DNA of 64,000 nucleotides, taken from the IMG/VR virus record IMGVR_UViG_3300026484_000600; one strand, written 5' to 3'. Made by a program: the position numbers and the translations under genes. The notes below the pieces were generated by a model. That model was not told where the DNA came from, searched no databases, and saw only the letters and a list, made by a program, of their open reading frames with translations. This document shows, piece after piece, positions 2,498 through 37,866 of this stretch. This DNA comes from a virus. Its lineage: Duplodnaviria; Heunggongvirae; Uroviricota; Caudoviricetes. Within the stretch, counting starts at the first letter, position 1, and each line of letters opens with the position of its first letter.

Positions 2498-2522
2498 AGA
2501 GGAATTATACCTCTCTAATTTT
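2496..2522. terminator. Bidirectional intrinsic terminator hairpin between convergent genes
   Basis: agagagg-aattata-cctctct, a perfect 7-bp GC-containing stem flanked by A/T runs. It sits exactly between the + gene ending at 2497 and the - gene ending at 2521. Confidence 0.6.
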
Positions 2523-4020
2523 AAAGTATGATTGATTCAATTTCTTTAATTAAAAAATCTTTATCATCCCATAATTTTGGTATGATTTGAAGCATACTAT
2601 CTGAAAAACCAGCTACTTCAAAAATATCAGATGTTTTTTCAATATCCAATGGTGAACCACCGCCATATCCTTCTAAATTCCAAAATAAAACTTTTACATT
2701 TGGATTGATTTCTTTACGATATGTTTTTAAATAATTTTTGAGTTGGTCACCAATATTACCCCAACTACCATACATTTGCATGTCACTAAAGACCACAATT
2801 TTATCAACATATGTTTTTGTTTTGATTAGTTCTTTTAGTGGAGCAGAAACATCAGTACCACCACCTCTAGTATTTAAATTATTGATAAAATCAAAAGATG
2901 ATAGACCTTTTATATCTCTTCTTGTACATGTATCAGCCCAAGTATAAAACAAACATTTATCATCATTCATACCTACTTTCATAGCAGCTGATAAAACTTT
3001 ACCAATATAAAATGGTGTTTTACGGTCATTACTTGAATAGCCACCCATAGAGCCTGATTCGTCAAGTAAAATAGCCACTTTTTCATCATCGGAAACAATA
3101 TTTGTATTTCCAGCTGAAAGGGCAAATGCTCTTTCAAGTGCCTTTTTAACGATATTCTTCTTAAATTCATCAATAGATAAATCTCTTACTGCATTCCATG
3201 CATCAATAAATCTAAATGGTAATACCATTGATTTTTGTACTCTTTTAGGATCAGTTATAAAATTAGACCAATGTTTTAGGTTATCTTCTGAAATATTACT
3301 TTCCATCAATGTTCTAATATTTTTTAACGCTGCCATATAACCCATTTTACCAGATTTAATTTCTTTCATATACGCTTTAACCCTATCTTCACCAGTTTTA
3401 GAGGCATTGATAGTTTGTGCTGTTTCAACGGCTTTTAATTGGTCTTCAATAACTCTTTTAAAGATAGTTTCATCATCAAAATTTTTAGGTGATGGATGTG
3501 CTAATTTAACTACATCTTTTAATTTCACTTTTGATTTTGGTTGTGCATATTTACGAAATTGATATTCATCAAATTTGGTTTCTAATGCTTTCTTAAAGGC
3601 TCTTCTAAGTGAATTTGGTACCATTTTATTTGGGTTTCTTGTATCCCAGAGTGCTAGCATTTCTGTCATATCATCTGGTCTTACAATAGCTTTTGTTAAT
3701 GCTGGACGTAAAAAATCACTTCCTTTCACATTTTCCGCCAGAATATTAGCCATAAAATGTGAAATGCTTCTAAGTCGACCGTTAGTTCTAGTGAAAACCA
3801 TAGCTTTTGCTACAAATTCAGCATCAGATTTTGATGTAGTAATAAGAGTTTCAATTCTTTTTAAACGTTCGCCTTCTTTTTCATAATATGAATCACCATT
3901 AAGCATAGAGTTTAAAACAACAGTTGCAACTTCTTTTTTTATAGGTCTATCATACGAAACACCCCCAGCCATATTAGTATTAGTTGGAATACTTTTAGTA
4001 CCTTGGTTAAATTTTGCCAT
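2521..4020 (-). CDS. rsr: Ro60-like (TROVE domain + C-terminal vWA/MIDAS) RNA-binding protein, Rsr orthologue
   Basis: The N-terminal region parallels the Ro60 N-terminus (GDSYYEKEGERLKRIETLI vs the human GGTYYIKEQKL..AEALIRLI pattern). The C-terminal vWA has a MIDAS DxSxS motif (LLDESGSMGG). Length 499 aa, typical of bacterial Rsr. Confidence 0.7.
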   Translation of the reverse strand: MAKFNQGTKSIPTNTNMAGGVSYDRPIKKEVATVVLNSMLNGDSYYEKEGERLKRIETLITTSKSDAEFVAKAMVFTRTNGRLRSISHFMANILAENVKGSDFLRPALTKAIVRPDDMTEMLALWDTRNPNKMVPNSLRRAFKKALETKFDEYQFRKYAQPKSKVKLKDVVKLAHPSPKNFDDETIFKRVIEDQLKAVETAQTINASKTGEDRVKAYMKEIKSGKMGYMAALKNIRTLMESNISEDNLKHWSNFITDPKRVQKSMVLPFRFIDAWNAVRDLSIDEFKKNIVKKALERAFALSAGNTNIVSDDEKVAILLDESGSMGGYSSNDRKTPFYIGKVLSAAMKVGMNDDKCLFYTWADTCTRRDIKGLSSFDFINNLNTRGGGTDVSAPLKELIKTKTYVDKIVVFSDMQMYGSWGNIGDQLKNYLKTYRKEINPNVKVLFWNLEGYGGGSPLDIEKTSDIFEVAGFSDSMLQIIPKLWDDKDFLIKEIESIIL

Positions 4021-4334: not shown

Positions 4335-4715
4335 GGGTCCGAATTGGGATCGATGTTGCTAAAAGAAATTTAAATTGCAAGTAGAGTGATGACTTAATCA
4401 TCAAAAAAGCTTAAATGCAAACACAAAACTTTATATTCCACAGACTGCGAGAGTAGCTGCTTAATCCTCCCTTTGGGAGCCTGGAATCACTCGGTTTATT
4501 AGTTGTCTATTTACTGATAAATAATGGGTGTATAATAAAAATAGATAAGCTGAAGTTAAACTTGATACCTTTAGACGAAAATTATATCGAGTACCTTTAA
4601 TACAGATTTGTTTGGTTATCTAAGTATTAAAGTATTAAGAATCAAACTAAACTTGTAAATGAGATTTAGATGGAAGTAGTGGCAGACCCGAGTTCAATTC
4701 TCGGCGGATCCACCA
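4335..4715 (+). ncRNA. ssrA: tmRNA (SsrA), one-piece, about 381 nt
   Basis: The 5' GGGUCCG pairs with the 3' CGGAUCC-A-CCA, giving a 7-bp acceptor stem with G3:U70 and a CCA end at 4713-4715. A T-arm lies at 4688-4704 (ccgag-UUCAAUU-cucgg). A GGAUCGAUG 5' element resembles the E. coli GGAUUCGACG. The internal tag ORF starts at resume codon GCA (4417) and runs to UAA (4462-4464), encoding ANTKLYIPQTARVAA, followed by a CUCCC...GGGAG hairpin. SmpB is encoded at 23006-23455. Confidence 0.8.
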
Positions 4716-4869: not shown

Positions 4870-6273
4870 TTAATCATCCTCAATTTTTATTTCAAGCTCT
4901 TTGTCAAAACCTAATTTTTTAAGGTATTGTTTAGCCATTTCTAAACGTCTACATTCAAATTTAACTCTATCTATAACTTGTTTTTCAACTTCTTCAATAT
5001 TTTTACCATTTGCGAAACTCATTATATATGGGAAAGAACCTTTATCATCCTTAAATTTTAATGCTAAATCCTTTTTATTTCCATTCCATGAATTTTTAAA
5101 TTTGGTTTCTGCATCAGACACTATATGATTGACATGATTAACTATAATTTCAGAGATGCTATCAATAAAATCCCGTTCTTCTACATTTTCTTCTGGTATC
5201 ATTGCTATAGTATCATCGATTGTTTCATCTAAAACTTTTTCAACAATTTTATGTTCTTTTAAACCATCAGTTAAAATACCATGTAGTGACATATACCAAT
5301 CAGTTTTTACTTTAGCCATCTTACCATTTTCAAATGTGATTACCCAACCTTCTTTATCTTCAACAGTTTCTTTTAATTTAAGTAACTCATCTAATGTATA
5401 TAAAGGTTCTTGTTCAGCTGTTAATACATTGAATGCTTTTACTAATGTATGATCATATATATTTAGATATAAACCGTCATTATTTTCATCCCGTAGTTGT
5501 AGTAATTTAAGTGATGTTTCAGGATATGATAACACTATCTTATTAAACGGAGAAACTATTTCAAAGATTGCAGCATAGCCAAATTCTAAGGTTGCTAAAA
5601 TAAATGCTTTAAGTTTAGGATCTTTTTCAACTATTTCCATAGCTAATTTACATTGTTCCGCTTCAAATGAAAATTTTGTTTTAGCTACTAATTCTCCTTC
5701 TATTAAAAGAAATCTAATTGCAGAACCATCCTCTTTATTTGCAACTCTCACTATTTCTAAATCTTTTACATCTTCATACATCCAAGAATTTTCAGGCTTC
5801 AATGTTGGTAACACCTTTTTATCTAATGATAAAATCTTAAAAAAGTCTCCGTGAGTCTCGTTGTTTCTATCAAATTCAGCAACAGTCATATTTAATTTTA
5901 AATCTATTGCTCTATACGTTTTATCGTTTTCATCAACAAAAAGTTTATTAATATTACAAATTTCAGAATGATTATTAATAGAAAGTTCCATATTTGTTAT
6001 ATTAGTTCCATTTGTTTGACCAATATTAAAAAATTTATCGATGAATAGATATGTTTTCCAATCGGAATTTTGAGCTTTTACAAATGTTATACCTCTTAAT
6101 TCTGTGGCTCTAACCATAGAACCATCTAATTTTGCATCAAAAAAATCACCTGCATTTGCTAAAAAATAAGTACACATTGCAATTTCTGTATTGCCTATTT
6201 TTTGATGTTTCATTTTGAAAGTTTCATTTATTTTTGTGATTTCTAATACTTCATTGTAAGTTAATAAAGCCAT
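4870..6273 (-). CDS. rnlA: RNA ligase 1 (T4 RnlA family, tRNA repair ligase)
   Basis: ELRGITF and KFFNIGQ match T4 Rnl1 ECRGIMF and KFFNLNE. Nucleotidyltransferase motif I KEDGS (T4 K99 EDGSL). 467 aa. Confidence 0.75.
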   Translation of the reverse strand: MALLTYNEVLEITKINETFKMKHQKIGNTEIAMCTYFLANAGDFFDAKLDGSMVRATELRGITFVKAQNSDWKTYLFIDKFFNIGQTNGTNITNMELSINNHSEICNINKLFVDENDKTYRAIDLKLNMTVAEFDRNNETHGDFFKILSLDKKVLPTLKPENSWMYEDVKDLEIVRVANKEDGSAIRFLLIEGELVAKTKFSFEAEQCKLAMEIVEKDPKLKAFILATLEFGYAAIFEIVSPFNKIVLSYPETSLKLLQLRDENNDGLYLNIYDHTLVKAFNVLTAEQEPLYTLDELLKLKETVEDKEGWVITFENGKMAKVKTDWYMSLHGILTDGLKEHKIVEKVLDETIDDTIAMIPEENVEERDFIDSISEIIVNHVNHIVSDAETKFKNSWNGNKKDLALKFKDDKGSFPYIMSFANGKNIEEVEKQVIDRVKFECRRLEMAKQYLKKLGFDKELEIKIEDD

Positions 6274-6358: not shown

Positions 6359-7510
6359 TTATTCGGTTCTGTAAATATAAAAATTTTCAGTTTCTCCGTT
6401 TAATGATACGGTTTCTTCATATTCCTCACCGTCATATGATGCAATATTAGTACCTCTACCATCTGTATCGACAATCCATTCTATAAAAGCATCTTCGTCT
6501 AATAATCCATGTTCTTTTACTATATCAGAAATATCACCGATATTATTTTTCCAGTATTCAACACCATCTTCATCATCAACTCGTGTTTCTGCAAATTCTT
6601 CAATATTATTATCAATATCATCTTCTAAATCTGATTTATATTCTTCTTTTTCACGTTCCCAAGCTTCAATCGCATCATCATATTCCTCTTGAGCTTCTTC
6701 TTCTAAACGATCTTGTTCTTCTTCCCACTCTTCTTCTGCATTTGATAATTCATCTTCCCATTTACTATGCGCTTCTTCCCACTCTTCTTCAGTTTCATAA
6801 TCATTTTTTACCGGTTCATTATCATAAAAATCTGAACTATCAAATTCCTCTCTTTCATAGGTATAATCTGATTCATCTGGTTCTTCGGGCCATTCTGGTT
6901 CAGAAAGAATGCCTAACTCTACCATTTCCTCATGTAATCTATTAATGTATTCATCGGAATTTGTACCTTCGTGTTTGATATCTTCAGCATAACTCATACT
7001 CATTTCAATTTTTGCATCATCAAACCAATCAGTATCAATAAAATTATCTAATGCATGATCCCTAGCCCATTCACTAAATCCATCAAATCCCACATCATCT
7101 AATAAATTTTCAACTCGTTCTTTAGCTATTTCATCAGCTTCATCATCAGTTAAAACTAAATATTTTTCTCTTCCAGATGTAAAAGTATATGGGTCTCTAT
7201 CTTCTTCTATATCTACAAAATCATATCCAGAATATTGATGTAATGCTAAGGCTCTCATAGGATCTGAAAAATCACTTAATGTAACAAAATTTTTTAATTC
7301 ATCAACTAAATCATCATCAATATTGTGGTCAGTCATATCAATTTCATCATCTGAAAAAAATAATTTTCCGGCTTCAATCCATTTTCCTAAAAATTCACCT
7401 AATTCTGTTGAAATTTCTAAATCATCAGGAATAAACTCGCCTTTATCTATTCTTCCTGATACTTCTATATCCCCATACTCTGTTTTTATTAATATATTAT
7501 CAACTCGCAT
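6359..7510 (-). CDS. Highly acidic hypothetical protein
   Basis: 383 aa, extremely D/E-rich with repeated EEWEE/DDxDD segments. No catalytic motif. Confidence 0.5.
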   Translation of the reverse strand: MRVDNILIKTEYGDIEVSGRIDKGEFIPDDLEISTELGEFLGKWIEAGKLFFSDDEIDMTDHNIDDDLVDELKNFVTLSDFSDPMRALALHQYSGYDFVDIEEDRDPYTFTSGREKYLVLTDDEADEIAKERVENLLDDVGFDGFSEWARDHALDNFIDTDWFDDAKIEMSMSYAEDIKHEGTNSDEYINRLHEEMVELGILSEPEWPEEPDESDYTYEREEFDSSDFYDNEPVKNDYETEEEWEEAHSKWEDELSNAEEEWEEEQDRLEEEAQEEYDDAIEAWEREKEEYKSDLEDDIDNNIEEFAETRVDDEDGVEYWKNNIGDISDIVKEHGLLDEDAFIEWIVDTDGRGTNIASYDGEEYEETVSLNGETENFYIYRTE

Positions 7511-7807: not shown

Positions 7808-8329
7808 CTAAATCATAAAATGGTTTAATCTTTTTAAAATTTTAGAGACTGTCTTTTCAGTTAGACCTATGTATGGATTTGTTTCAAAAACTCTATCTCT
7901 AAATATTTCCCTCATATTATTACTAACAAATTCAGAATTTCCAGTAATATCAAATAATTCATCATCTAAAATAATAAAATCTTTCACTTTGAAATATTCA
8001 ACAGCATCTAAAATTTGTTTGCCCCTACCATAAGATTTTCTATCTGTTCCACCAATAATTCTATTAGTATATTTAAATCCAAAGTTTTCTAAAGCTTTAA
8101 CTGTATTAACTGAATAATACCACGAACTCGAGATTATTACTTTCCAATCATTATTTTCAAGGATTTTATTTAATAAAGTGACTTTATCATAATCCATACC
8201 CATTAATCCATTCCATTTATTTTGAGTACCTTTAACTGGATTTTGTATATATCCATTTGGAAAAGTAAATGATTTTTGAAGATGATAATTATTTAAAACG
8301 CCGTCAATATCTAAAAATAACGCGTTCAT
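7808..8329 (-). CDS. HAD-superfamily phosphatase (possible polynucleotide/nucleotide phosphatase)
   Basis: HAD motif I FLDIDGVL, motif II IISSS, motif IV ILDDE. 173 aa. Confidence 0.55.
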   Translation of the reverse strand: MNALFLDIDGVLNNYHLQKSFTFPNGYIQNPVKGTQNKWNGLMGMDYDKVTLLNKILENNDWKVIISSSWYYSVNTVKALENFGFKYTNRIIGGTDRKSYGRGKQILDAVEYFKVKDFIILDDELFDITGNSEFVSNNMREIFRDRVFETNPYIGLTEKTVSKILKRLNHFMI

Positions 8330-8475
8330 TCAACTACTTCAATAGTAAAATCTTTATGATTTTCATAAAATGCTGATATGATGTTTAAGTCATGAACAGA
8401 CAAACCACATTCCCAAATGTTAAGTATTTTAAATTCGCCTGTTTTAATACAAGTTATTTTTAATTCATCAAACAT
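8326..8475 (-). CDS. Small hypothetical protein (49 aa)
   Basis: Unlisted short ORF with a strong TAAGGAG RBS. Its stop overlaps the ATG of the HAD phosphatase gene (ATGA). Confidence 0.35.
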   Translation of the reverse strand: MFDELKITCIKTGEFKILNIWECGLSVHDLNIISAFYENHKDFTIEVVE

Positions 8476-8917
8476 AGTTGCTCCTTAGTAATTGATTTAT
8501 TTTATTGAATCTATCATTGATTTTTGTAACAATCAAACGTTGGTTTTGAGAAATTGGTGGTATTTCATTTAAATTAAACCATTTCAATTCAAAAACCTCT
8601 CGTTTATCTAATTTAATTCGATTATATAAATATTTATCCCAATGAATAAAGTATAGTTCAATATTTTTCTTTTTATTATTTTGTTTGACGGAAAAATCTA
8701 AATCTTCTTTAGCGATCGATATACCTATTTCTTCCTGAACTTCTCTCAAACAACATTCAATTTTAGTTTCGTTTGGTTCAATTTTTCCTTTAATGAAATC
8801 AAAATTGTCATTTTTTCTAGATGATTTCATTAAAAGAATAGAGACGCCGTTGTTAGATAGTAAATAAGGTATAATTCCAATGGATATAGGTTTCATATGG
8901 TTCACTTTATATAGCAT
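8468..8917 (-). CDS. Nudix hydrolase
   Basis: Nudix box GKIEPNETKIECCLREVQEEIGI (Gx5Ex7REUxEExGU). Confidence 0.7.
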   Translation of the reverse strand: MLYKVNHMKPISIGIIPYLLSNNGVSILLMKSSRKNDNFDFIKGKIEPNETKIECCLREVQEEIGISIAKEDLDFSVKQNNKKKNIELYFIHWDKYLYNRIKLDKREVFELKWFNLNEIPPISQNQRLIVTKINDRFNKINQLLRSNYV

Positions 8918-9185
8918 TATTAGTACGGTTTAATGTTTTGTGCGCAAGTTTTATAAACTCAAATGACACATCATCAGGATGAATTTTAAAACCATATTCA
9001 TCTTCAAATTTTTTAGTCCATAAACTATAATGATTTCTTAATTCCATACCTAAACTAAAATGGTATATTATTAAATCGTTTTCATCGGTATTAATAAAAT
9101 CATTTAGTGGTTTAAAATCTTTAAGGTCATCTGATAGTAGAAGTTTCACAACCTCTACTAAATCTTCTGGAGGATTAGAAATCAT
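8907..9185 (-). CDS. Hypothetical protein
   Basis: 92-aa ORF, operon context. Confidence 0.4.
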   Translation of the reverse strand: MISNPPEDLVEVVKLLLSDDLKDFKPLNDFINTDENDLIIYHFSLGMELRNHYSLWTKKFEDEYGFKIHPDDVSFEFIKLAHKTLNRTNNAI

Positions 9186-10324
9186 TTATATTTCCTAGTA
9201 ATAATTTCCACTTTGTCGTCTGAAAATTGAGTAAGTTTTTCAGTCCAAGTAATAATTCTAGAGCGTTCTACAAATTCATTTTGAGCATAATCCATAGTTC
9301 CTTCAGAAATAGGTTTCAGGTATTTTTCTTTTTTAACTAAAATACCGTATTTAAATTTATCTTCGACTTCTTCCCAATCTTTACCAGTAGTTTCTTTACA
9401 GTATTTGACCTGTTCAAGACCATTTTTTCCTAATAGAGATTTATGAGAACAGTATGTTTGAGCATACATTGATCTAGAGTTCTTCTCAGAATCTCGAATT
9501 CGCCACATGATACTATTAAATGCTTCTTCTTTGGATGATACACCATAAACTCTGGCATCAAACCATGCATTGCCTACTTTTTCTTCCATAGTTTTAATGT
9601 ATTTCATAATATCTGGATTATTGGTATCAATTTCTCTATTTTCTAATTTTTGATCATATTCTTCAAACTTTTTTTCTAAAAAATTAGAAAAATGCTTATT
9701 AAACTGCATAGTAGTATAGGCCGCTATTAAAGAAGTTAATTTCTGAATTCTACCACCAAAAATCTGTTCATTTGTTGTCTCTACTTTTTTAATAATATAT
9801 TTTGATAGTACTTCTAATGATTTAGTTTCTGTTTGTATGTTTCTATTTTGCCAACAACATCGATCTATAATTTCGTCATTAGTATCAGAAACTATCCAAA
9901 AGTTGATACTAAAATATTTATCCTCCGTATCTTCATAAATTATATCTAATGAGCCAAGTAAGTTATACTCTTTATCATAAACTTTATATGATACTTCTTC
10001 TTCATCATTAAGAAAAAATAAATCTTTAACTTCAATAGGTATTAATCTTTCTTTGAATTGAGGAGCAAATACTAATGAAATTTCATCTGATTGTGTGTAA
10101 CCTGTTACTGCTCCAAATTTTTCAACGAGATTTTTGGTTGTTTCTTCCATTGTATTAGATAATATGTCATCAAATGGTTTTTTCATACCTTTTGTGTATT
10201 TACTAAATTTATGACCATCGATTCTACAAATGATAAAATCTCTTGGATCAATTACTGATTCAAATTCTTTTTCATAACCTTTAAGCCTAGTTCCTAAAGA
10301 TTCCTCTCTCATACTTTTTTTCAC
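9182..10324 (-). CDS. Thg1-like protein (tRNA-His guanylyltransferase family, 3'-5' polymerase) with a C-terminal extension
   Basis: The N-terminal 250 aa track Thg1: FIICRIDGHKFSKYTK (the RIDGxxFxxF motif), KPFDD, GYTQSDEISLVF (Thg1 GESDEYSF). 380 aa total, about 130 aa longer than Thg1. Confidence 0.7.
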   Translation of the reverse strand: MKKSMREESLGTRLKGYEKEFESVIDPRDFIICRIDGHKFSKYTKGMKKPFDDILSNTMEETTKNLVEKFGAVTGYTQSDEISLVFAPQFKERLIPIEVKDLFFLNDEEEVSYKVYDKEYNLLGSLDIIYEDTEDKYFSINFWIVSDTNDEIIDRCCWQNRNIQTETKSLEVLSKYIIKKVETTNEQIFGGRIQKLTSLIAAYTTMQFNKHFSNFLEKKFEEYDQKLENREIDTNNPDIMKYIKTMEEKVGNAWFDARVYGVSSKEEAFNSIMWRIRDSEKNSRSMYAQTYCSHKSLLGKNGLEQVKYCKETTGKDWEEVEDKFKYGILVKKEKYLKPISEGTMDYAQNEFVERSRIITWTEKLTQFSDDKVEIITRKYK

Positions 10325-11559: not shown

Positions 11560-12534
11560 TTAATAGATACCTATTTGAGTACGAGTAAGATTTGTTGTTC
11601 CGTTTCTCTTGTAACCAAGACTTTCATATCTACTAATTACATTGGCTACTTTTTGAGCACTATCAATATCAGTTGCAACCATACTAAAAAGTTTAGATTT
11701 GAACCAAGCTTTTCTCTCATCTGGAACATTAAGTGTGCCAAGGTAAATACCCATAATAGTATCTACTTCTTTGTAACTTGCTCCTAGTTGAGCTTCATCA
11801 GTATCATCTTCAGTAACCATAAGACCATCTGATGGTGGTTGGGAAATAATATCTTCTCTAACTCCAAGAGCTTTAGCGATTGCTGGAAGCTCAAAACCCT
11901 TACCAATATTTTGGATTGGTCCAAAGTCACCAACATCACCACAAATAGTCCAAAAACCCATTTGAAATTCTGAAAGGTTGTCTGTTGAAAGTACCATACC
12001 ATTTGTCTTTCTAGCAAGGTCATAAAGAGTAATCATTCTAAGTCTTGCTTTAATATTACCTTCAAGTATATTAGTTGGAAACTCTTTCGTTTTAAACCCC
12101 GCTTTCTCAGCAAGTTTATCGGTCATTGAAACGGTATTAAATACTTCCGACATCATATTAGTAGGGTCATCAAATGCTTCTGCTTCTCCACTTGTAAAGT
12201 AATCTGCATCCCAACTTTTGAATTCTTCAAAAGCCGTACAATAGTTATCTCCAACCCATTGAGCTTGTTCTTTGTGTTCATTACTTGAACTCATTGGAAT
12301 AGATATACCAATTAGAGGTACTCCTGTAAATTCTTCTTGACAAAGTGCTGCAACAACGGCACTATCAAGACCACCACTTACTCCAAGAACAAGTGATTTA
12401 AGGTTGTTCCTTTTAACATAATTTTTAACTTGTGCTCTAATATTTGAAATGACCATATTCGCCTTTTGTGTACTAGGCGTAGTTATTTCGTCTATTTTAG
12501 TTACTAGATCATTAAACGATTTGATATTATTCAT
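11560..12534 (-). CDS. nadE: NH3-dependent NAD+ synthetase
   Basis: PP-loop ATP pyrophosphatase motif LVLGVSGGLDSAVVAALC. Length and overall pattern match NadE. Confidence 0.8.
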   Translation of the reverse strand: MNNIKSFNDLVTKIDEITTPSTQKANMVISNIRAQVKNYVKRNNLKSLVLGVSGGLDSAVVAALCQEEFTGVPLIGISIPMSSSNEHKEQAQWVGDNYCTAFEEFKSWDADYFTSGEAEAFDDPTNMMSEVFNTVSMTDKLAEKAGFKTKEFPTNILEGNIKARLRMITLYDLARKTNGMVLSTDNLSEFQMGFWTICGDVGDFGPIQNIGKGFELPAIAKALGVREDIISQPPSDGLMVTEDDTDEAQLGASYKEVDTIMGIYLGTLNVPDERKAWFKSKLFSMVATDIDSAQKVANVISRYESLGYKRNGTTNLTRTQIGIY

Positions 12535-13435
12535 AATTCTGTACCTCTACTTTTTGTTTTTTGTTTTTAAGATAATCTTGCACAAACCATAATTGCCCAC
12601 ATCCGCCGCCAATATCATCTTGTCCAGCAGGATCAAATATTCTAGTATTATATCCGTCCGTTAAAAATGATTTTTCAAAATCTCTAATAGTATCTAAATT
12701 TCTACATGCACTATCTTTCATTGTTTCATCAGCTTCACAAATAACACTAAATGTGAAATTAAAAACAACTGGTGAAAATAAGTTTTTGAGATTATCTATA
12801 TCTGAAATAGAATTATTTGTTCCATCAACACAATAATTCAGATAAACTTTTCTACCTGTTTCTTTATTCCAAAGAATACCTCTATCTCTGATTTCTCTAA
12901 GAGTGTATTTCTTTTTAAATGGAATCAAGTCATTTCTTTCATCGTCATTTGATTTATGAATGCTAAACTGCAAACCCACTTTGTTAATTTCGGTTGATAA
13001 TTCGATAAAATCATTAAAAACCTCATCATTATCAATACCGATAGTTGAAATTAATAGATCGGCATTAGGATAAAGTTTATTCAATTTAATGATAGCCTCT
13101 TTAACGTTTTCATAATTAAGAAATGGTTCTCCCATACTCATAAACATTATTTGTAGTTTTTCACATCGACTGTTTATATCTTCAATATTTTTATCTTTAA
13201 AAATAGTTGTTATCTGTTCAACTATTTGATCCGACGAAATATTTTTTAAGAAATTTTTACCAGTCCCACAAAAGGTACATCCAACAGGACAACCACTTTG
13301 TACAGAACAACAAATAACAGTTCTTTTATCGAATGAACCATATTTATATAGCACACTTTCTAAAACTATTTCATCATCATTAAAAATATATTTCCAAACA
13401 TTCTCTTCTGAACTTTCTATTACTTTCATGATCAT
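12527..13435 (-). CDS. Radical SAM enzyme of the RlmN/Cfr family (rRNA/tRNA adenine C-methyltransferase-like), N-terminally truncated
   Basis: ICCSVQSGCPVGCTFCGTG matches RlmN CVSSQVGCALECKFCSTA (CxxxCxxC), with the following ISSDQIVEQI (RlmN VSEIIGQV). The C-terminal GGGCGQL matches the RlmN catalytic AACGQL. 302 aa versus about 380 for RlmN. Confidence 0.65.
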   Translation of the reverse strand: MIMKVIESSEENVWKYIFNDDEIVLESVLYKYGSFDKRTVICCSVQSGCPVGCTFCGTGKNFLKNISSDQIVEQITTIFKDKNIEDINSRCEKLQIMFMSMGEPFLNYENVKEAIIKLNKLYPNADLLISTIGIDNDEVFNDFIELSTEINKVGLQFSIHKSNDDERNDLIPFKKKYTLREIRDRGILWNKETGRKVYLNYCVDGTNNSISDIDNLKNLFSPVVFNFTFSVICEADETMKDSACRNLDTIRDFEKSFLTDGYNTRIFDPAGQDDIGGGCGQLWFVQDYLKNKKQKVEVQNYE

Positions 13436-14070
13436 TTTGCATCTCCAGAAAAGGTTACGCCTCTATTTTTCATAATATTAATATTTGTTTGGAAACTATC
13501 ATCTATTGATCCATCTGGAAATGATTTTATTCCTTCAACAGCATCCGAAAGAATATTAACTGTATAACCATTTTTGATTAAACCCATAACATTCATAAAT
13601 ACACAGTAATTTGTGGCTACACCCACAATGTCTATAATTGTTTCCTCTGGTTTAAAGGTATTTGTAAAAATAGATTTAAAGTTTGAATTTCCTTGCCAAA
13701 TATCAAAAACATCTTTTGTAAAAAACATTTCCGAATCAACTATAAATGTGTTAAATGGTATAGTTCCTTTATTGCCTCCACCATTTGCAATAAAGTTATC
13801 CCAATTTTTATATCTTGGTTTAATTTTATAAAAATTCCATCCAGTCGTCCCAAATTCACAATGAATTGAAGGAAAAATTTTAGATTCATCAGAACCACTA
13901 TATTTATCAGATGTGTGTGTATCAAAAGTATAAATTACATTTTCATATGATTCATCATGGATATAAGATTGGATATTATCAACTAATTTATCAGCATTAG
14001 GTACTGATAGAGCCCCTGTTGGGCTAGCAAAGTCAAATTGGTAGTCTACTACTATAAGTATTTTTTTCAT
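13432..14070 (-). CDS. pncA: Nicotinamidase / isochorismatase-family hydrolase (PncA-like)
   Basis: N-terminal IVVDYQFDF (catalytic Asp). Catalytic Cys context VGVATNYCV. Confidence 0.65.
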   Translation of the reverse strand: MKKILIVVDYQFDFASPTGALSVPNADKLVDNIQSYIHDESYENVIYTFDTHTSDKYSGSDESKIFPSIHCEFGTTGWNFYKIKPRYKNWDNFIANGGGNKGTIPFNTFIVDSEMFFTKDVFDIWQGNSNFKSIFTNTFKPEETIIDIVGVATNYCVFMNVMGLIKNGYTVNILSDAVEGIKSFPDGSIDDSFQTNINIMKNRGVTFSGDAK

Positions 14071-15195: not shown

Positions 15196-17886
15196 TTATA
15201 ATCTTGGGTCGACACTTTCTTCTTTTTCATTTTCAAATAATAGATTGGCTATAATTTGTATTTGTTCTTTACTACCCATAGGAGCTTTAAGCATTTCTTC
15301 TCCTAATTTATACTCTGATATAGAAAGTCTTAATTTTTTAGAAATATTTTTTTGATTTAATAATCTATTAAATTTAATAGGGAATTTATAATCGTATCCA
15401 TAAATAATAGAAAGATATTCTTCATTTCTCACTTTTAAATATGGTGCAATCCAAGACTCTAATAATTTCACTTCGGGTTTTATTACGCAACCCTCCATAT
15501 TTTGATTTCGCACCAAATTATCATACCATTTTTCAGCTTTAATCAAATAATTTTTATCATCAAAATCAACAATATGTATATTATCTGAATTTAATAATTT
15601 AAAGTGTTTACTAGGAGTTAAATCCAAATTAATTATATTATTGTTTGATATTGCTTTCAATAATCTAAAACCTTTAAAATCAGTATTTGTATCTTCTCCA
15701 TAAAGGGTTATTTGTTTATTAAAAATTTTCCAAGCTTTTTTGTGGTCACTTAAAGGTATAAATCTATCAATTTCAAATTTTAAATCTTTATAAGAGTGAT
15801 ACTTGTGTCCATATTTTTTAACCAACTCTTTTTTAGCTAAAATATTCTTATCTTTTAAAAATTCTGATTTGTTAAATTCATCCTTTAAACTTATAAAAGC
15901 CTTATCAAATCCATTATCAAACAGAAAGTCAATTTCTGTTTGAATAGCTATATCCGCAGTCTTAAAATGGGTATCAATCAAACCTTTTCCTAAAAGAGCC
16001 CATGGTAATAATTCGCCATCTATAATTATCTCATCAGCATTATACATATCAAAAATATGCTTGTATTCTACTAATTTAGATGAGAATAATTCGGTTAAAT
16101 CTTCTCTTATTTTATATCCATTTCTACTTGTAGCATAACATTTTTTAATATTATCTTTAAAGAGATATAGTTGTGCTCTGGAACCCATATATTTAGGTTG
16201 TAGCACTACACTATCTACTTTATCCTTAAAATAATTGAGACCCATTTCTAAAGATTCTAGTGAATTATTTTCGATATTTTTATTTGTAGGGGAAATAGTA
16301 CCTCCTATATAACCTATACCATTTTTTACTATGTAATCTAATCTTCTTTGGTTATATGGATTTAAATCTTCAATAGATACTTCTTTCATAGCTTTACCTA
16401 TATCTTCAAACAGATTATTTCCAAAGTCGTTTCTTGCACTCTTAGGAGATAATGATTTTACACTTTGAATAAATGCTTTGCCATAACCTATACTATATCC
16501 AGTTAATTTTCCACCATATACACAACCTGTATCAATACAAACCTTATTTTTAAAAGATCTAACAGATGACTGACCCATATGACCGAATATATGAACCGGA
16601 TGGTTATTAATTGCTTCTTCTTTCAAATATGATGTTAATTCATCATTAGTCTTATCTTTGTTTTTACTTCTACTAGCACATTTATATTGGTGTTTTAATG
16701 AAATTCGATCCATCTTTTCAAGATATTTAACTTCACATGGTGCATGAGTAACTATAAAGCCTCTTTTATTTAATCCTATAAATTTAACCCATCCTTTCAT
16801 ATTATGAAAAATATCTAAAAACATAGATTTTAGCTCTTCATTTTTCTCTAGTAAAATTGCTGTATTATAGTATCTTTTTTTCTGATCTAATCGTTCTGGA
16901 GTAATTTCTAAATCTTTGTGATTTGTTATCCATTTCCAAACCATCTCTTCATGATTGCCCAATATTAATTGAAATCGATCTTGAAATTTTATCATATTTT
17001 TGTGTATGAATTTTATAGTTTCAGTTAAATCTTCTTCTGATGATTTATCTATTAAATCACCTGCAAAAATTAGTCCTATATTTTTTGTTTTAACAGTATC
17101 TATAATTTCATTGTCTTTAATTATAAAACCATATTTTTCAAGTAATTGTTTTAATTCTTGAATACATCCATGAACATCACCAATAGTAATCCAATCATAA
17201 GTACTATTTACTATTCTGTCAGTATATTTTTTCCAATCCCATACATCTACACTATAAACAGGCTTTAACATTGTAGGTGTTAAATCATATCGATTTTCCT
17301 GTTCCACTTCCAAAAGAAAATCTTTATTTTTAATTTTATGAATATTTTTATATATCCCTTTTTTTAATGTTTTTAATGTCTCCGTTTTTAATCTTTTTAT
17401 ATGTTTAGAAATAATTTTCCCATTGGTACTTGGACGTTGATATAGGCTTTCAGAAAAATTCTTTTGGTATTCATCAATATTTTTATAATCGAAAACTATA
17501 ATATCTACATTATAATTATTATCTTTTGCTATATCTAACACGTCGTTTCTAAATTTTTCGCTTAATCCGGTTGTATCTAAAATAACAAATTCTGCATTGA
17601 TTGGATAACTGGTAACAGCTCTTAATTTTGTAAATAGTATTTCGAATGCTTGTGTTGAACTCTCAGTCATAATTTCATCTATTTTACCATAGTTATAACC
17701 CAAAATATCTTTTCTAATATTATCGGAACTAATATATTGTATATTTGTCTTTAAATTATTATTAACATTGCCTTTATATTTTTGTAATGAAGGTATTAGA
17801 ATTTCATTAGCAAACGTCGTTTTACCAGAACCACTAGGTCCGACAAGCATTATTATGGTATGTACTTGGGTTTTAATTTTATTCAT
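15196..17886 (-). CDS. pnkp: Bacterial-type polynucleotide kinase-phosphatase Pnkp (kinase + metallophosphoesterase + ligase domains)
   Basis: N-terminal P-loop kinase (VGPSGSGKTTFAN). Central calcineurin-like phosphatase motifs (GDVHG, GDLIDKS, GNHE). C-terminal about 450 aa with a KYMGSR lysine motif, consistent with the Pnkp ligase domain. 896 aa. Confidence 0.7.
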   Translation of the reverse strand: MNKIKTQVHTIIMLVGPSGSGKTTFANEILIPSLQKYKGNVNNNLKTNIQYISSDNIRKDILGYNYGKIDEIMTESSTQAFEILFTKLRAVTSYPINAEFVILDTTGLSEKFRNDVLDIAKDNNYNVDIIVFDYKNIDEYQKNFSESLYQRPSTNGKIISKHIKRLKTETLKTLKKGIYKNIHKIKNKDFLLEVEQENRYDLTPTMLKPVYSVDVWDWKKYTDRIVNSTYDWITIGDVHGCIQELKQLLEKYGFIIKDNEIIDTVKTKNIGLIFAGDLIDKSSEEDLTETIKFIHKNMIKFQDRFQLILGNHEEMVWKWITNHKDLEITPERLDQKKRYYNTAILLEKNEELKSMFLDIFHNMKGWVKFIGLNKRGFIVTHAPCEVKYLEKMDRISLKHQYKCASRSKNKDKTNDELTSYLKEEAINNHPVHIFGHMGQSSVRSFKNKVCIDTGCVYGGKLTGYSIGYGKAFIQSVKSLSPKSARNDFGNNLFEDIGKAMKEVSIEDLNPYNQRRLDYIVKNGIGYIGGTISPTNKNIENNSLESLEMGLNYFKDKVDSVVLQPKYMGSRAQLYLFKDNIKKCYATSRNGYKIREDLTELFSSKLVEYKHIFDMYNADEIIIDGELLPWALLGKGLIDTHFKTADIAIQTEIDFLFDNGFDKAFISLKDEFNKSEFLKDKNILAKKELVKKYGHKYHSYKDLKFEIDRFIPLSDHKKAWKIFNKQITLYGEDTNTDFKGFRLLKAISNNNIINLDLTPSKHFKLLNSDNIHIVDFDDKNYLIKAEKWYDNLVRNQNMEGCVIKPEVKLLESWIAPYLKVRNEEYLSIIYGYDYKFPIKFNRLLNQKNISKKLRLSISEYKLGEEMLKAPMGSKEQIQIIANLLFENEKEESVDPRL

Positions 17887-17895
17887 AAGAATCCT

Positions 17896-18489
17896 TTATT
17901 TGAATGTATAACCATCTAACTGATAAATCGTTTGTATTTCGTCATCAGTCCATGATTTATATCTTTTCTTTACTACTTTTATTTTTTTATCAAGGTAGCT
18001 AGCTTTCATACTATTATAAGAATCACTAGAACCGCCTCTATCGATTAGAAGAGGTTGTTTTTCACCTTCTACTATCAAAATAAATATACTGTGGTTGTCA
18101 TTATACATAAGAGAAACATTTTTATCAAATGGTATTTCTTCATCAATTCGTTCTGAATGATAATAGTCATGAATTGCAGGGGATATAGCAAATGGGTAAA
18201 AAATCCCAATTAATATTATTGGCAAACCAATAATAGCAAACCAATTATAATATGCTTCATTATCCCAATGTAAATCATAATTATATTTTGAGTGTTCATT
18301 TATTCCCACATAAATAAAATGTGCAATAACGCCTATAATTAGGAATGATAAATATACTCCCCAACTACCATCCGAAAACCATGTTATAATGCCTATAACC
18401 AATGTTATGATAAATGGTATTGTGTATAGTTTTGTTCTTAGTAACGATTTGGTTTTAAACTTAGATGTTACATTGCTTTTGATATTCAT
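17896..18489 (-). CDS. Membrane protein of unknown function, encoded between hen1 and pnkp
   Basis: 197 aa with three to four predicted TM helices. Confidence 0.45.
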   Translation of the reverse strand: MNIKSNVTSKFKTKSLLRTKLYTIPFIITLVIGIITWFSDGSWGVYLSFLIIGVIAHFIYVGINEHSKYNYDLHWDNEAYYNWFAIIGLPIILIGIFYPFAISPAIHDYYHSERIDEEIPFDKNVSLMYNDNHSIFILIVEGEKQPLLIDRGGSSDSYNSMKASYLDKKIKVVKKRYKSWTDDEIQTIYQLDGYTFK

Positions 18490-18498
18490 TACAAGCCT

Positions 18499-18795
18499 TT
18501 ATATAAATTTTTCTGGAAACATCTCAATAGCTTTATCAAATGCTATCTGTGCTTCTTCAATTGTGATATTATATTTAATAGCAACTTTATCTATACTTAA
18601 ATGATTTTTCTTATTTCTAAAAATTGATATATTTCTTTCTTCGGCGGTTTTATACAGTTTATGTTCCAACGGTACTATGATATTGGTATCTTGACCTTCT
18701 ATTGAAATTGATTTCAGAAAAGAATTTCCGCTATTTTCTTCAATACCCTCAAAGAGTTCATTCTTTATAGTAATACCATAAACTAAATCAGCCAT
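18499..18795 (-). CDS. Hypothetical protein
   Basis: 98-aa ORF between hen1 and pnkp. Confidence 0.4.
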   Translation of the reverse strand: MADLVYGITIKNELFEGIEENSGNSFLKSISIEGQDTNIIVPLEHKLYKTAEERNISIFRNKKNHLSIDKVAIKYNITIEEAQIAFDKAIEMFPEKFI

Positions 18796-19673
18796 TCTGG
18801 AAATCTCCTAATAATTCTTTCCCAAACATCTTCAGGAATCTCTGATTGAAAATCATTTTTTAATGCGAATTTAATATTCTTTTCAGTCATCCATAAAAGA
18901 TCTACATCTTCTTTTTCAAAGCGCTCATATAAGAATGGACTAGCCCAAACTATAATTCGATCATCTTTTATTAAATATCCATTATTTGCAGCTTCTATAT
19001 ATTCTAAATATTCAAAAATTATATCTTCACGATCTATTCCTTTTATTTCAAGAATATTAAAAGAGTTTTTAAAATGTCCTAAAAGTTTTTCTTTTCCATC
19101 ATATTGTATCTTATCTTCAACATAGAAAATACTTTGATGGAACCCTTTACCATAGGTATCCATAACATCATAATTCATTTCGAGGGGTATATTATTGTAA
19201 AAAATATCAGTAATTACAATGTCTCCAGTACCGATATAATCTGTATCTTTTGCCTCTATTACTAATAAATCTTTATTAAAATCGTCGGTATTTTTTAAAA
19301 TTTCTGTTTCAAAAAAAATACCTTTTTCTATTGATACTGATGAAATATACCAACCATCAGATAAAAAATTATCATCATTAATATTAAGGGTTAAATCACT
19401 AATATTAATAGTATCATATTTTGAATATTCGTATTCATTAACATTAATAGAAATACTACCATCAATAGCACAACTGGAAATATGTTCTATATCATCAAAA
19501 TCATAATATTGTCTTTCCCATCCACTACTACTGAATAATGTATCAAAATGGCCAATAATTTCATTGTAATCAAAACGTCTAAGAAGTTCTTTTATATTGT
19601 TGATATGGAGCTTATTGAGCTTACCACAGCAATATTCTCCACCATATCCACCAAATGTTAATACCATTTTCAT
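18783..19673 (-). CDS. Hypothetical protein
   Basis: 296-aa ORF between hen1 and pnkp. No motif recognised. Confidence 0.45.
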   Translation of the reverse strand: MKMVLTFGGYGGEYCCGKLNKLHINNIKELLRRFDYNEIIGHFDTLFSSSGWERQYYDFDDIEHISSCAIDGSISINVNEYEYSKYDTINISDLTLNINDDNFLSDGWYISSVSIEKGIFFETEILKNTDDFNKDLLVIEAKDTDYIGTGDIVITDIFYNNIPLEMNYDVMDTYGKGFHQSIFYVEDKIQYDGKEKLLGHFKNSFNILEIKGIDREDIIFEYLEYIEAANNGYLIKDDRIIVWASPFLYERFEKEDVDLLWMTEKNIKFALKNDFQSEIPEDVWERIIRRFPEWLI

Positions 19674-20923
19674 ACCCTTTTAATTATACAACCAATACTT
19701 GTAGATATACCATTGATATTATCGCCTATTTCTATAAATTCAAAGGATAGGTTATCATTATTAAAATTAGACATAAAACTTTTAAATTCATCAAATGTAG
19801 GTTCCCAATCATGATCATCATGTCGCATTTCTCCACCTAATTCGTAAAATACGTTAAAGTCTTTATTTGGTACTGTAATGATAAACGTATCAAAATTAAT
19901 AGATGTTAGCACTAATTCTATTAATCTTTTTGATTCAACTTTTGGCATATGTTCGATAACTTCGGTTAGTATTACATCTACTAACTCATTATCGTAATCT
20001 TTTATAAAATCTTCTAGACTATTAAAGAGATTAATATTTGTAATTTCTTTTTTTGAAGCTTTTATCTTGACTGACTCTAATAGATTAGGATTAATATCAA
20101 TGGCGTTATAAAAATATTTTTCTATTTTTTTAGAAAAATCTATTGCATAAAATCCTTCTCCACACCCAATATCAATAATCGATTTATTAAATGATAATAA
20201 ACGCTCTATTCTATCTTTTCGTTGCATAGCCGTATTACCATAAGCCATATTGATATTATATCTTTTTGATTCTTCAAGTAATTGTTTATATTTTTTAAAT
20301 TGATTTTTACTTTTAATAAGATTTCTACTTACTAAATAACGTATAAAGAATGGTGCATCTAATCGATTCATAGCATTTAGGTATTTTTCAATATTTGAAT
20401 TATCTAAATGTACATAGTCGTTACTTGATAATGCAATAAAAATCATCATAAGATTAATATAATTTAATAACATGAACCAACTATTTTCAGTTGTCACCTT
20501 AATAGTATAGTTTTTCCCTACTTGTTCAGTAATTTCAATTTCAAAATCAGGGAAATATTTCTTAAAATCCATTAACTGTTTTATTCTTTTAATTTCGAGT
20601 AAATTAATATAAAAATATTTCGGGTTTTTTATATCTAATTCTGATTCTTCTCTAACAGTACTTGAAAAAAATTCACTTATTGCATTGATAATAAACATGG
20701 GCGAGTTGTATTTAGAAATATTTAGATAATCAAATTCTTGTGATCCAAAGGATACATCATTATCAGCATCCTTAAAATAGATATTAAAGTCGGTACCATT
20801 ATGAGAGTACCAGGTAAATGCAGTACCTTTACGTATACTTCTTATTTGCATAGATGAATTTGGATTTTTTTTAATAATGTATCCAAAATTTGGATCATCA
20901 GAATGTAGCTGTAAAATAGCCAT
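19670..20923 (-). CDS. hen1: Hen1-like RNA 3'-terminal 2'-O-methyltransferase (C-terminal Rossmann MTase)
   Basis: SAM-binding motif I IIDIGCGEGFYAIDF in the C-terminal half of a 417-aa protein. Bacterial Hen1 has the same architecture and partners with Pnkp, which lies 1.8 kb downstream in the same orientation. Confidence 0.55.
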   Translation of the reverse strand: MAILQLHSDDPNFGYIIKKNPNSSMQIRSIRKGTAFTWYSHNGTDFNIYFKDADNDVSFGSQEFDYLNISKYNSPMFIINAISEFFSSTVREESELDIKNPKYFYINLLEIKRIKQLMDFKKYFPDFEIEITEQVGKNYTIKVTTENSWFMLLNYINLMMIFIALSSNDYVHLDNSNIEKYLNAMNRLDAPFFIRYLVSRNLIKSKNQFKKYKQLLEESKRYNINMAYGNTAMQRKDRIERLLSFNKSIIDIGCGEGFYAIDFSKKIEKYFYNAIDINPNLLESVKIKASKKEITNINLFNSLEDFIKDYDNELVDVILTEVIEHMPKVESKRLIELVLTSINFDTFIITVPNKDFNVFYELGGEMRHDDHDWEPTFDEFKSFMSNFNNDNLSFEFIEIGDNINGISTSIGCIIKRV

Positions 20924-36129: not shown

Positions 36130-37866
36130 ATGAAAATAAAAGATATATTGGATATATTTTATCCTAATGGACTTGATAGACCCTATAACAAGAATGTATT
36201 GAGAAAACAACCAGAATTAAAACAAATATTAATTAAGAAAACTGATTTTTTAAAAAAGGAAGCGACTATTTCAGAACGTCTTTATGTTTTAAGACATAAT
36301 ATTTGTGTATCGCCAATATGTCTTGAGTGTGGATCACCAGTAAAATTCAAAAGTCCTAAAGAAGGTTATGCAAAATTCTGTTCTAAGAAATGTACTTCAA
36401 AATCATCAATAACTAAAATAAAAAGAAATAATACGTTTAACGAAAAATATGGTGGTATTGGTTTTGGGTCAAAAGAAATTTTAGATAAAGTATATGAAAC
36501 CAATTTAGATAGATTTGGGACATCTATTCCACAACAAACAAATATAATAAAAGATAAAATTAAAAATTCCTGGAAGGATTTAGATAAAGAAATTATTTTA
36601 AAAAAGAGAAGAGAAACTAACTTAGAAAAATACGGGACAGAATATCATCAACAGAATAGTGACCAAAAAGAAAAATTACTTAAATCAATGATTAAAAATA
36701 ATGGTGGTATTGGTCTTTCTTCAGATAAAATCAAATCTAAAGTTAAAGCGACAATGCAAAAAAAATATGGTGTAGACAATCCCATGCAGTCGGATAAAAT
36801 CAAATCTAAAGTTAAAGCGACAATGCAAAAAAAATATGGTGTGGATAATTACAAAGAATTAGATAATGATGCATGGAATAATTTTAAAAAATATTTTGAT
36901 CCAGAAACATTTCAATTAGACTTATCTTTGCAAGAAATGGAAGAAAAATATCAAGTGCGATATTACACCATATCTAATTTTTTGCAGAAGTATGGTTTTG
37001 AATTTTCAAAAATATCATCATATGAACAATCATTACGTAATATATTACCTGATGATTTTGAATTTAATAACCGAACAATTTTAGATGGTAGAGAACTAGA
37101 TTTTTATTCAAAAAGTCGAAATTTAGCTATTGAATTTAACGGACTTTTATATCATTCTGAAAAATATGGAAAAGACAAGAATTATCATAAATCAAAGACG
37201 GATGGATGTATATCTAAGGATATATCATTGATACACATATTTGAAAATGAATGGTTGTTTAAACGTAATATCGTAGAATCTATAATTAATACCAAGTTGA
37301 ATAATTTTTCTCATAGAATTTATGCTAGAAAATGTCAAATTAAAGAACTCGATACCAAGATTAAAAATGATTTTTTAGAAGAAAATCATATTCAAGGAAA
37401 AGATAGCTCCAAAGTAAAATTAGGATTATTTTATGAGGGTGATTTAGTACAAGTTATGACATTTGGTCATTCTCGATTTAATAAAAAATATCAATATGAA
37501 ATGCATAGATCTTGTTCAAGAATTGGTTATCAAATAATCGGCGGATTAAATAAATTGTGGTCATACTTCATTAAAAATTATAAACCTAAATCTGTTGTTA
37601 CGTATGCTGATAGAAGATATTTTGATGGGAGGAGTTATTTAAAATTAGGGTTTAATTTTTCTCATACCTCACCATCTAATTTTTGGATATTTGGTCCTGG
37701 TATAAAAGGTGTTGATTCAAGATTAAATTGGCAAAAACACAAGCAGAAAGATAAATTAAAAAAGTTTGACCCAACTTTAACAGCATGGGAAAATATGATT
37801 GATAATGGTTATAATAGAATATGGGATAGTGGGAATAATGTATATATTTGGAAAGCGGAAGAGTAA
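36130..37866 (+). CDS. Putative free-standing homing-endonuclease-like protein (Zn-ribbon, tandem KYG repeats, C-terminal Vsr/DUF559-like PD-(D/E)XK domain)
   Basis: N-terminal CLECGSPVKF...FCSKKC. Repeated KYGG/KYGV modules, including an exact 23-aa duplication. A C-terminal RELDFYSKSRNLAIEFNGLLYHSE motif (the DF...AIEFNG..H endonuclease signature). Convergent with and abutting the intein-bearing gp41 gene. Confidence 0.45.
   Translation: MKIKDILDIFYPNGLDRPYNKNVLRKQPELKQILIKKTDFLKKEATISERLYVLRHNICVSPICLECGSPVKFKSPKEGYAKFCSKKCTSKSSITKIKRNNTFNEKYGGIGFGSKEILDKVYETNLDRFGTSIPQQTNIIKDKIKNSWKDLDKEIILKKRRETNLEKYGTEYHQQNSDQKEKLLKSMIKNNGGIGLSSDKIKSKVKATMQKKYGVDNPMQSDKIKSKVKATMQKKYGVDNYKELDNDAWNNFKKYFDPETFQLDLSLQEMEEKYQVRYYTISNFLQKYGFEFSKISSYEQSLRNILPDDFEFNNRTILDGRELDFYSKSRNLAIEFNGLLYHSEKYGKDKNYHKSKTDGCISKDISLIHIFENEWLFKRNIVESIINTKLNNFSHRIYARKCQIKELDTKIKNDFLEENHIQGKDSSKVKLGLFYEGDLVQVMTFGHSRFNKKYQYEMHRSCSRIGYQIIGGLNKLWSYFIKNYKPKSVVTYADRRYFDGRSYLKLGFNFSHTSPSNFWIFGPGIKGVDSRLNWQKHKQKDKLKKFDPTLTAWENMIDNGYNRIWDSGNNVYIWKAEE
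36721..36858. repeat. 69-nt direct tandem repeat (2 copies) inside the homing-endonuclease-like gene
   Basis: gataaaatcaaatctaaagttaaagcgacaatgcaaaaaaaatatggtgt occurs twice with a 69-nt period. It encodes SDKIKSKVKATMQKKYGVDN twice. Confidence 0.75.

Follow-up and report, generated by a model that had tools for sequence, protein, structure and literature searches.

This study focused on one gene in a 64,000-nucleotide stretch of viral DNA (IMG/VR record IMGVR_UViG_3300026484_000600, Caudoviricetes), the whole of which is called the window below. The gene encodes a Thg1-like protein (TLP), a member of the superfamily whose enzymes are, to our knowledge, the only known 3'-5' polymerases. An earlier note, made from the sequence alone, had described the product as a phage-encoded Thg1-family protein with a C-terminal extension of 130 residues. 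The assignment was borne out by profile searches, by comparison with solved structures and by a phage-like gene setting, and the additional residues were found inside the protein, chiefly as an acidic insertion in the TLP palm domain.

The TLP gene and its family

The gene and the segments of its product are laid out as follows, BtTLP (from Bacillus thuringiensis; PDB 4KGK, 245 aa) being the best solved relative.

9182-10324, minus strand: TLP gene, an uninterrupted open reading frame of 380 aa plus stop, with a GTG start at 10324
10064-10303, minus strand: N-terminal palm segment, residues 8-87 (strand 1 with RIDG and D36, helix 1, SDE hairpin)
9767-10063, minus strand: acidic alpha/beta insert, residues 88-186 in the broad definition (strictly about 95-180, 9785-10042)
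9689-9766, minus strand: palm helix 2 with FGGRxQK, residues 187-212, aligning to BtTLP 88-115
9584-9688, minus strand: helical expansion, residues 213-247, exceeding the BtTLP connection by about 30 aa
9185-9583, minus strand: C-terminal TLP core, residues 248-380 (FDARV strand, WRIRDSEKNS helix, beta-hairpin), aligning to BtTLP 127-209

A Shine-Dalgarno-like AAAGGA motif lies 6-7 nt 5' of the GTG and overlaps the end of the preceding gene. The N-terminus MKK is common to the window TLP and its relatives, and a public protein collection holds a 380-aa entry (P0001) that is 100% identical to it.

The Thg1-family call was right, since the protein carries the RIDG and SDE motifs and matches both Pfam PF04446 (Thg1; 92.4 bits against a cutoff of 29.2, E 2.9e-26) and phrog_4717, 'tRNA-His guanylyltransferase' (E 3.6e-55), profile matches that place its N-terminus in the family. 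BtTLP was matched at E 2e-21, and the other relatives in the PDB were yeast Thg1 (E 6e-5) and MaTLP (E 4e-3). Of the two catalytic signatures named in the earlier note, SDE is present as described (residues 79-81), while the first reads RIDGxxFxxY (RIDGHKFSKY, residues 34-43) and not RIDGxxFxxF. The metal-binding carboxylates of the human Thg1 palm are D29, D76 and E77; those of the window TLP, D36, D80 and E81, were invariant in an alignment of 60 homologous sequences. R34 and K195 were likewise invariant and R258 was conserved in at least 90% of the sequences, and the PDB alignment equates these three with R28, K99 and R131 of BtTLP. The residues binding the triphosphate of the nucleoside triphosphate (NTP) are R27, K96 and R133 in yeast and R28, K99' and R131 in BtTLP, where the incoming NTP is bound by a K99 that the neighbouring subunit of the dimer supplies (PMC3701042). 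As judged by its residues, the catalytic apparatus of the window TLP is intact.

HINNLYN, an anticodon motif specific to eukaryotes (PMC6471195), is absent, and SEKNSRSMYAQ stands at the equivalent position. Because the protein is nearest to BtTLP and lacks HINNLYN, it is assigned to the TLP type of the superfamily and not to eukaryotic Thg1. The databases name the family 'tRNA-His guanylyltransferase', and TLPs are able in vitro to place G-1 opposite C73 (PMC6471195), which would fit a dedicated G-1 adding enzyme, that is, a bona fide Thg1 rather than a general 5'-end repair polymerase. Such an enzyme is, however, very unlikely here: the anticodon-recognition motif is missing, the nearest relative is BtTLP and the preferred reaction of characterised TLPs is the repair of 5'-truncated tRNAs (PMC6471195), the genomic context (see below) is one of RNA repair, and the window has no tRNA-His or other tRNA gene nearby.

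Where the extra residues lie

The window TLP is about 135 aa longer than BtTLP. Its alignment to the latter falls into three pieces (residues 8-87 with BtTLP 2-82, 184-211 with 88-115, and 241-337 with 111-209), the Pfam and PHROG matches come in two stretches that break at about residue 88, and the protein remains TLP-like in sequence and fold up to about residue 376. The earlier count of 130 extra residues was therefore about right and the term C-terminal extension wrong, because the extras are internal (the insert at 88-186 and the expansion at 213-247). The last 130 residues, which had been said to lack any counterpart in Thg1 or TLPs, are ordinary TLP core with the FDxR strand, the WRxRDxxKNS helix and a beta-hairpin.

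The insert comprises about 86-99 aa and lies between the SDE strand (palm strand 3) and the GGRxQK helix (palm helix 2). In a MAFFT alignment of the window TLP with its metagenomic relatives, SDEISLVF is followed in ordinary members by a short beta-hairpin (e.g. FKPSFKDK-DG-GITNNQ in P0023); the window TLP has a segment of about 86 aa at the tip of that hairpin and then resumes with the conserved IFGGRxQK helix. The helical expansion lengthens a helical hairpin and, in the same alignment, is found in the whole clade, insert-less members included; AlphaFold2 (AF2) predicted helices at residues 193-228 and 237-249 of the window TLP.

Positions invariant in the 60-sequence alignment (A1) are spread over the core on both sides of the insert: R34, D36, G37, F40, S79, D80 and E81 in the N-terminal palm segment, G191, K195 and N209 in palm helix 2, and F255, D256, R275, D278, N282 and R354 in the C-terminal core. 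An AF2 model built from that alignment had a mean predicted local distance difference test score (pLDDT) of 90.3 and a predicted TM-score (pTM) of 0.82. Searched against the PDB with Foldseek, it returned Thg1 or TLP chains as all of its top 32 matches, the best being BtTLP (E 2.4e-15, TM-score normalised to target 0.79-0.84), with almost the whole chain covered. Structure prediction thus returned the Thg1/TLP fold, an RRM-like palm plus fingers. Near the C-terminus a beta-hairpin is predicted at 328-338/351-360, its tip with lower confidence, and bears the invariant R354.

The division first proposed, into 250 N-terminal residues of Thg1 and a novel Cys- and aromatic-rich targeting or regulatory domain of 130 residues at the C-terminus, could draw on the excess length over BtTLP and on the existence of a CCWQNR motif. 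That motif, however, occupies residues 156-161 (9842-9859 of the window), mid-protein and within the insert; a single Cys is semi-conserved, aromatics are not raised, and both homology and fold reach the C-terminus. A C-terminal extension was ruled out by the PDB, Pfam, PHROG and MAFFT alignments, and we give this division of the protein practically no credence.

The inserted acidic domain

Modelled separately from 31 homologous segments, the insert gave a pLDDT of 90.8 and a pTM of 0.79, with elements in the order beta-alpha-beta-beta-beta-beta-alpha-beta, the first and last strands of which continue the pre-existing hairpin. It is predicted, with high confidence, to be a compact folded alpha/beta domain. 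Its net charge is -10 in the window TLP and between -4 and -16 (mean -10.5) in the 31 homologues; the median for the larger open reading frames of the window is -2 per 100 aa.

The extra residues had also been called rich in Cys and aromatics, which they are not: the insert contains two Cys, of which a single one is conserved, and this within the closest subclade alone; the more distant homologues that bear the insert have 0-1 Cys at this place, and aromatics make up 13% of the insert compared with 10-15% elsewhere in the protein. A Cys/Zn metal-binding domain was rejected, there being no conserved Cys/His cluster and no conservation of the cysteines across the family. Going by the pattern of conservation, the insert has no conserved catalytic, metal- or ligand-binding residues, and we do not think that it serves as a targeting or redox/metal domain.

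Searches for relatives of the insert were largely negative. Pfam gave no match, Foldseek against BFVD gave no convincing fold (best E 0.087) and the PDB no convincing fold match, the top but weak structural neighbour in two Foldseek searches being T7 Gp1.2. A hidden Markov model (HMM) of the insert, run against 1.84e9 representative proteins, found only insert-bearing TLPs and three long proteins, which were matched in 9-10 short stretches each and are taken to be repeat or compositional matches; together with the Pfam result, this gave no mobile domain present elsewhere. A BLAST match to the TLP of Ralstonia phage RsoM2USA had hinted at an internal duplication of the TLP palm and proved to be over-extended. 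No duplication is detectable, because a profile-profile comparison (hhalign) of the insert with insert-less TLPs returned nothing. Foreign DNA or a compositional anomaly was ruled out by an unremarkable GC content (24.6%, against 27.1% for the window).

Distribution and evolution of the insert

Among the 120 best homologue clusters, 33 carry the insert, with 78-113 residues at the site and the gene frame intact, so that the frame disruption in relatives named in the earlier note as a ground for refutation was not seen; the remaining 87 have a loop of 9-29 residues. Some loops of 26-29 residues look like deletion remnants (e.g. ...SLVDCDGFELCKPEITN). In a neighbour-joining tree of the core columns, built without support values, the two states are interspersed, and insert-less P0026 and P0025 nest among insert-bearing proteins, which suggests that the insert was repeatedly lost or gained among close relatives. 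Two further insert-less proteins, P0023 and P0031, are encoded at the same syntenic locus, so that the state of the insert separates orthologues and not paralogues with different jobs.

The insert has diverged at about double the rate of the core, mean pairwise identity among insert-bearing proteins being 61% for the core and 31% for the insert. No position in the insert head is conserved across the whole insert-bearing set; the only invariant or near-invariant positions, Y176 and N185, are in the returning strand at the junction with the core. What is conserved is the predicted fold and the strong negative charge. When the window gene was compared with an 85%-identical relative (on L091), the Nei-Gojobori ratio of nonsynonymous to synonymous substitution rates (dN/dS) was 0.16-0.17 for the insert, 0.07 for the core and 0.27 for the helical expansion. 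By this measure the insert is a selected coding segment, under purifying selection and less constrained than the core.

These data bear on whether the insert has any specific function. It could be a tolerated, near-neutral and lineage-specific decoration at a permissive surface hairpin, as the close relatives lacking it at the same locus, its twofold faster evolution, the absence of a family-wide conserved residue in its head and the lack of homologues elsewhere would all allow. A dN/dS of 0.17 nevertheless indicates purifying selection, a confidently predicted compact fold is kept down to about 40% core identity, and the strong negative charge is present in all 31 homologues despite the turnover of sequence; we consider a neutral decoration fairly unlikely.

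On the searches run, the insert appears confined to a clade of TLPs from uncultured large-phage contigs. All 162 phage TLP records in INPHARED skip the insert region. Its presence in cultured phages was indicated by tblastn matches in one piece to RsoM2USA and Bacillus phage CM1, and was rejected when these proved to be TLPs of ordinary length (271 aa and 244 aa) to which the alignments had been extended too far; the one-piece INPHARED alignments all fall to such TLPs of 244-271 aa. In GTDB the best 80 loci held TLPs of ordinary length only, without the insert, and PDB alignments and Foldseek did not find it in the solved TLP and Thg1 structures.

Gene neighbourhood

The TLP gene lies in a conserved RNA-repair and ribosome-rescue island, of which the recognisable components and adjoining genes are the following.

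2521-4020, minus strand: Ro60 orthologue (TROVE plus Ro60-type vWA domain; phrog_850)
4335-4715, plus strand: transfer-messenger RNA, tmRNA (Rfam, 114 bits; tag ANTKLYIPQTARVAA)
4870-6273, minus strand: Rnl1-type RNA ligase (PF09511, E 1.9e-13)
6359-7510, minus strand: extremely acidic protein of 383 aa with long D/E-rich stretches and no Pfam match
7808-8329, minus strand: HAD_SAK_2 phosphatase-like RNA-repair domain protein (PF18143, E 4.4e-18)
8468-8917, minus strand: Nudix hydrolase (PF00293)
8907-9185, minus strand: DUF6794 protein, 92 aa (PF20594, E 1.9e-7)
11560-12534, minus strand: NAD synthase (NadE)
12527-13435, minus strand: radical SAM protein
13432-14070, minus strand: isochorismatase-family protein, possibly a nicotinamidase
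15196-17886, minus strand: bacterial-type Pnkp polynucleotide kinase/adenylyltransferase-ligase, 896 aa (PF16542, E 5e-31; PF13671)
19670-20923, minus strand: Hen1 RNA 3'-end 2'-O-methyltransferase (PF22032 Hen1_N, E 1e-65, plus methyltransferase domains)

The order TLP, (DUF6794), Nudix, HAD_SAK_2, ligase, tmRNA and TROVE recurs at two related loci, L001 and L085, at both of which the Rnl1-type ligase is syntenic and HAD_SAK_2 is present. Loci L002 and L088 have the order isochorismatase, NadE, insert-less TLP, Nudix and a gene of about 470 aa that is the size of a ligase, followed in L002 by tmRNA and TROVE; this is the order given for the P0023 and P0031 genes, tmRNA and TROVE following at P0023. 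In most of the loci examined (the window, L001, L002/L003, L085, L086 and L088) the TLP gene is followed within 1-5 genes by a Nudix gene, whether or not the insert is present. L002, L085 and L088 share the syntenic pair of NadE and isochorismatase genes, and L085 has the radical SAM gene as well; this block of three, next to the repair genes, suggests that the phage replenishes NAD+.

The tmRNA of the window lies between the genes for the Rnl1-type ligase and Ro60/TROVE and antisense to both, as it does in L001 (18366-18746). In L002 it is found (16478-16854) between the ligase-sized gene, of 465 aa and with no Pfam match on record, and TROVE. Bacterial Ro60 loci usually carry Y RNAs at the place taken here by tmRNA. 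At gathering thresholds, neither a Y RNA nor any other further Rfam family was detected in the window. Pnkp and Hen1 form an RNA-repair pair, and between their genes are two open reading frames without assigned function (17896-18489 and 18783-19673). The 383-aa protein at 6359-7510 probably accounts for the outlier of -26 per 100 aa in the charge distribution of the window.

The gene directly following the TLP requires separate mention. In the window and in L001 (11128-11376) the start of the DUF6794 gene overlaps the TLP stop by 4 nt, and in L085 (5127-5411) it begins 2 nt past the TLP gene. DUF6794 thus stands directly after the TLP in three of the five insert-bearing loci examined and in none of the three insert-less ones examined (L002, L087 and L088), and it was also not found there in insert-bearing L086. 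This pattern is one of the arguments for regarding the acidic insert as a docking module for a basic partner protein (for instance another enzyme of repair, DUF6794, or a protein that binds ribosomes or tRNA), or else as a nucleic-acid mimic or decoy directed against a host nuclease or inhibitor. The combination of conserved acidity and variable surface, as in phage mimic and inhibitor proteins, would suit either function, as would the weak resemblance to T7 Gp1.2, an acidic inhibitor protein. However, the correlation with DUF6794 is small and confounded by phylogeny, L086 breaks it, and no partner is directly indicated, which makes docking or mimicry unlikely in our estimation.

The phage contig

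The window contains phage-like genes for a DnaB-like helicase, a DNA helicase, PhoH, topoisomerase II, an exonuclease, a homing endonuclease and MazG, along with several phage-only families. The topoisomerase is nearest (about 33% identity) to those of jumbo phages such as Atu_ph07 and RaK2, and a 20-kb portion of the window had no counterpart in INPHARED by megablast. An insert-bearing TLP copy with 86% identity is found on an IMG/VR viral contig of 224 kb, and an insert-bearing relative, P0009, on a contig of 496 kb. The phage carrying the TLP gene is an uncultured jumbo phage with AT-rich DNA (27% GC). Two further features of the window were recorded.

36130-37866, plus strand: HNH/homing-endonuclease-like gene, 578 aa, on the opposite strand and abutting the DnaB-like helicase gene (37868-39289)
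58042-59352 and 59365-60696, minus strand: two tandem phrog_10773 paralogues (function not assigned)

Comparison with known TLPs

The closest structural reference, BtTLP (4KGK/4KGM), shares with the window TLP the metal carboxylates, the NTP-binding residues R/K/R and the TLP-type KNS in place of HINNLYN. It differs in being a cellular protein, in having a loop of about 7 residues where the window TLP has an acidic domain of about 95 aa, and in a shorter connection at the place of the 213-247 expansion. The archaeal MaTLP (Methanosarcina acetivorans), solved with tRNA (5AXM/5AXN), shares the fold according to Foldseek. In MaTLP the tRNA elbow is read by a flexible C-terminal beta-hairpin (R198-R215), which bears a conserved Arg (PMC4820378); the window TLP has a predicted hairpin at 328-360 with the invariant R354, a candidate equivalent of R215. 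MaTLP has no counterpart of the extra domain, which is at the junction of palm strand 3 and helix 2.

Among viral relatives, the jumbo-phage TLPs of phrog_4717 (e.g. Pseudomonas phage 201phi2-1, Serratia phage BF, Erwinia pEa_SNUABM phages and Vibrio phage D69) are 31-40% identical to the core of the window TLP. They also come from large phages and have been discussed as RNA-repair components (PMC2904730, PMC7824862), but their alignments are split in two around the insert, and those examined are about 210-270 aa long. Insert-less orthologues in related uncultured phages, such as P0023, P0031, P0026 and P0028, are much closer, with cores 50-63% identical and the helical expansion present, and differ in having a hairpin of 12-29 residues (e.g. 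FKPSFKDKDGGITN) at the insert site.

The earlier note had held that phage-encoded 3'-5' polymerases are rarely discussed, and this needs to be qualified. A phage-encoded TLP is not new, because Thg1 homologues in phage 201phi2-1 and mimivirus were reported in 2010 (PMC2904730), sporadic Thg1 in group 2/3 jumbo phages was described in 2021 as part of RNA repair (PMC7824862), the proteins have a PHROG family of their own, and INPHARED holds 162 records, many of which are already annotated as tRNA-His guanylyltransferase. The remark stands in so far as a 2019 review of the Thg1 family mentions neither phages nor insertions and no biochemistry of a phage TLP came to light. Nothing is new about the enzyme family, its occurrence in jumbo phages or the setting of repair; the novel element is the acidic, folded orphan segment that interrupts the palm of this TLP.

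Proposed role

Characterised bacterial and archaeal TLPs all repair 5'-truncated tRNAs (PMC6471195, PMC4820378), and a repair role for phage Thg1 homologues has been proposed before from comparative genomics (PMC2904730, PMC7824862). By analogy, the window TLP probably restores missing 5' nucleotides of truncated tRNAs or tRNA-like RNAs, by adding nucleotides 3'-5' on a template once the 5' end has been activated with ATP or GTP, as is expected from its family. The TLP step would then be the restoration of 5' ends within a phage pathway for repairing RNAs damaged by host nucleases. Pnkp would provide the 5'-phosphate for that step, and the adjacent Nudix enzyme may trim the 5'-triphosphate, or process the adenylylated RNA ends, made by the TLP. 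The other genes of the island would contribute end-healing (Pnkp and the HAD protein), sealing (Rnl1 and the ligase domain of Pnkp) and protection (Hen1), with Ro60 and tmRNA as its RNA-chaperone and ribosome-rescue parts.

The insert emerges about 10 residues before K195, on an element whose equivalent in BtTLP contributes to the nucleotidyl-transfer site of the partner subunit. Because of this position, and because only fold and negative charge are conserved, we propose with low confidence that it may be an accessory module without catalytic function, a gate located next to the composite active site and working by steric and electrostatic means. A gate of this kind would influence the choice of RNA 5' ends let in, the length of extension, or the oligomeric state.

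Several points weigh against this explanation. No biochemical study or activity data for any phage TLP were found in the literature searched, and the 64-kb window has no tRNA gene, so that no specific substrate is indicated. The patchy distribution shows that the insert is dispensable for the core function, and the number of gains and losses is uncertain. The placement of the gate beside the active site is taken only from its proximity to K195 in the sequence, and a strongly acidic module is unexpected for an add-on that binds RNA. On balance, a TLP polymerase in a repair island with the insert as a gate seems, taken as a whole, slightly better than an even prospect. Those of its parts that are given above as established are held with high confidence; the gating mechanism is by itself a tentative and rather doubtful suggestion.

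A bolder variant would make the insert an anti-defence or regulatory module, either a decoy mimicking tRNA or RNA that binds a host tRNA nuclease or inhibitor, or an autoinhibitory plug released on damaged RNA. We regard this as highly improbable; were it true, a single phage protein would both sense or neutralise an attack and repair the resulting damage.

Leaving that variant aside and returning to the TLP as a repair polymerase with a possible gate, how TLPs choose their substrates and stop elongation is an open question (PMC6471195). Close orthologues with and without a folded domain of about 90 aa provide a natural comparison for the control of access to the composite active site. The window TLP adds a component to the RNA-repair islands of phages, as an incremental variant rather than a surprise.

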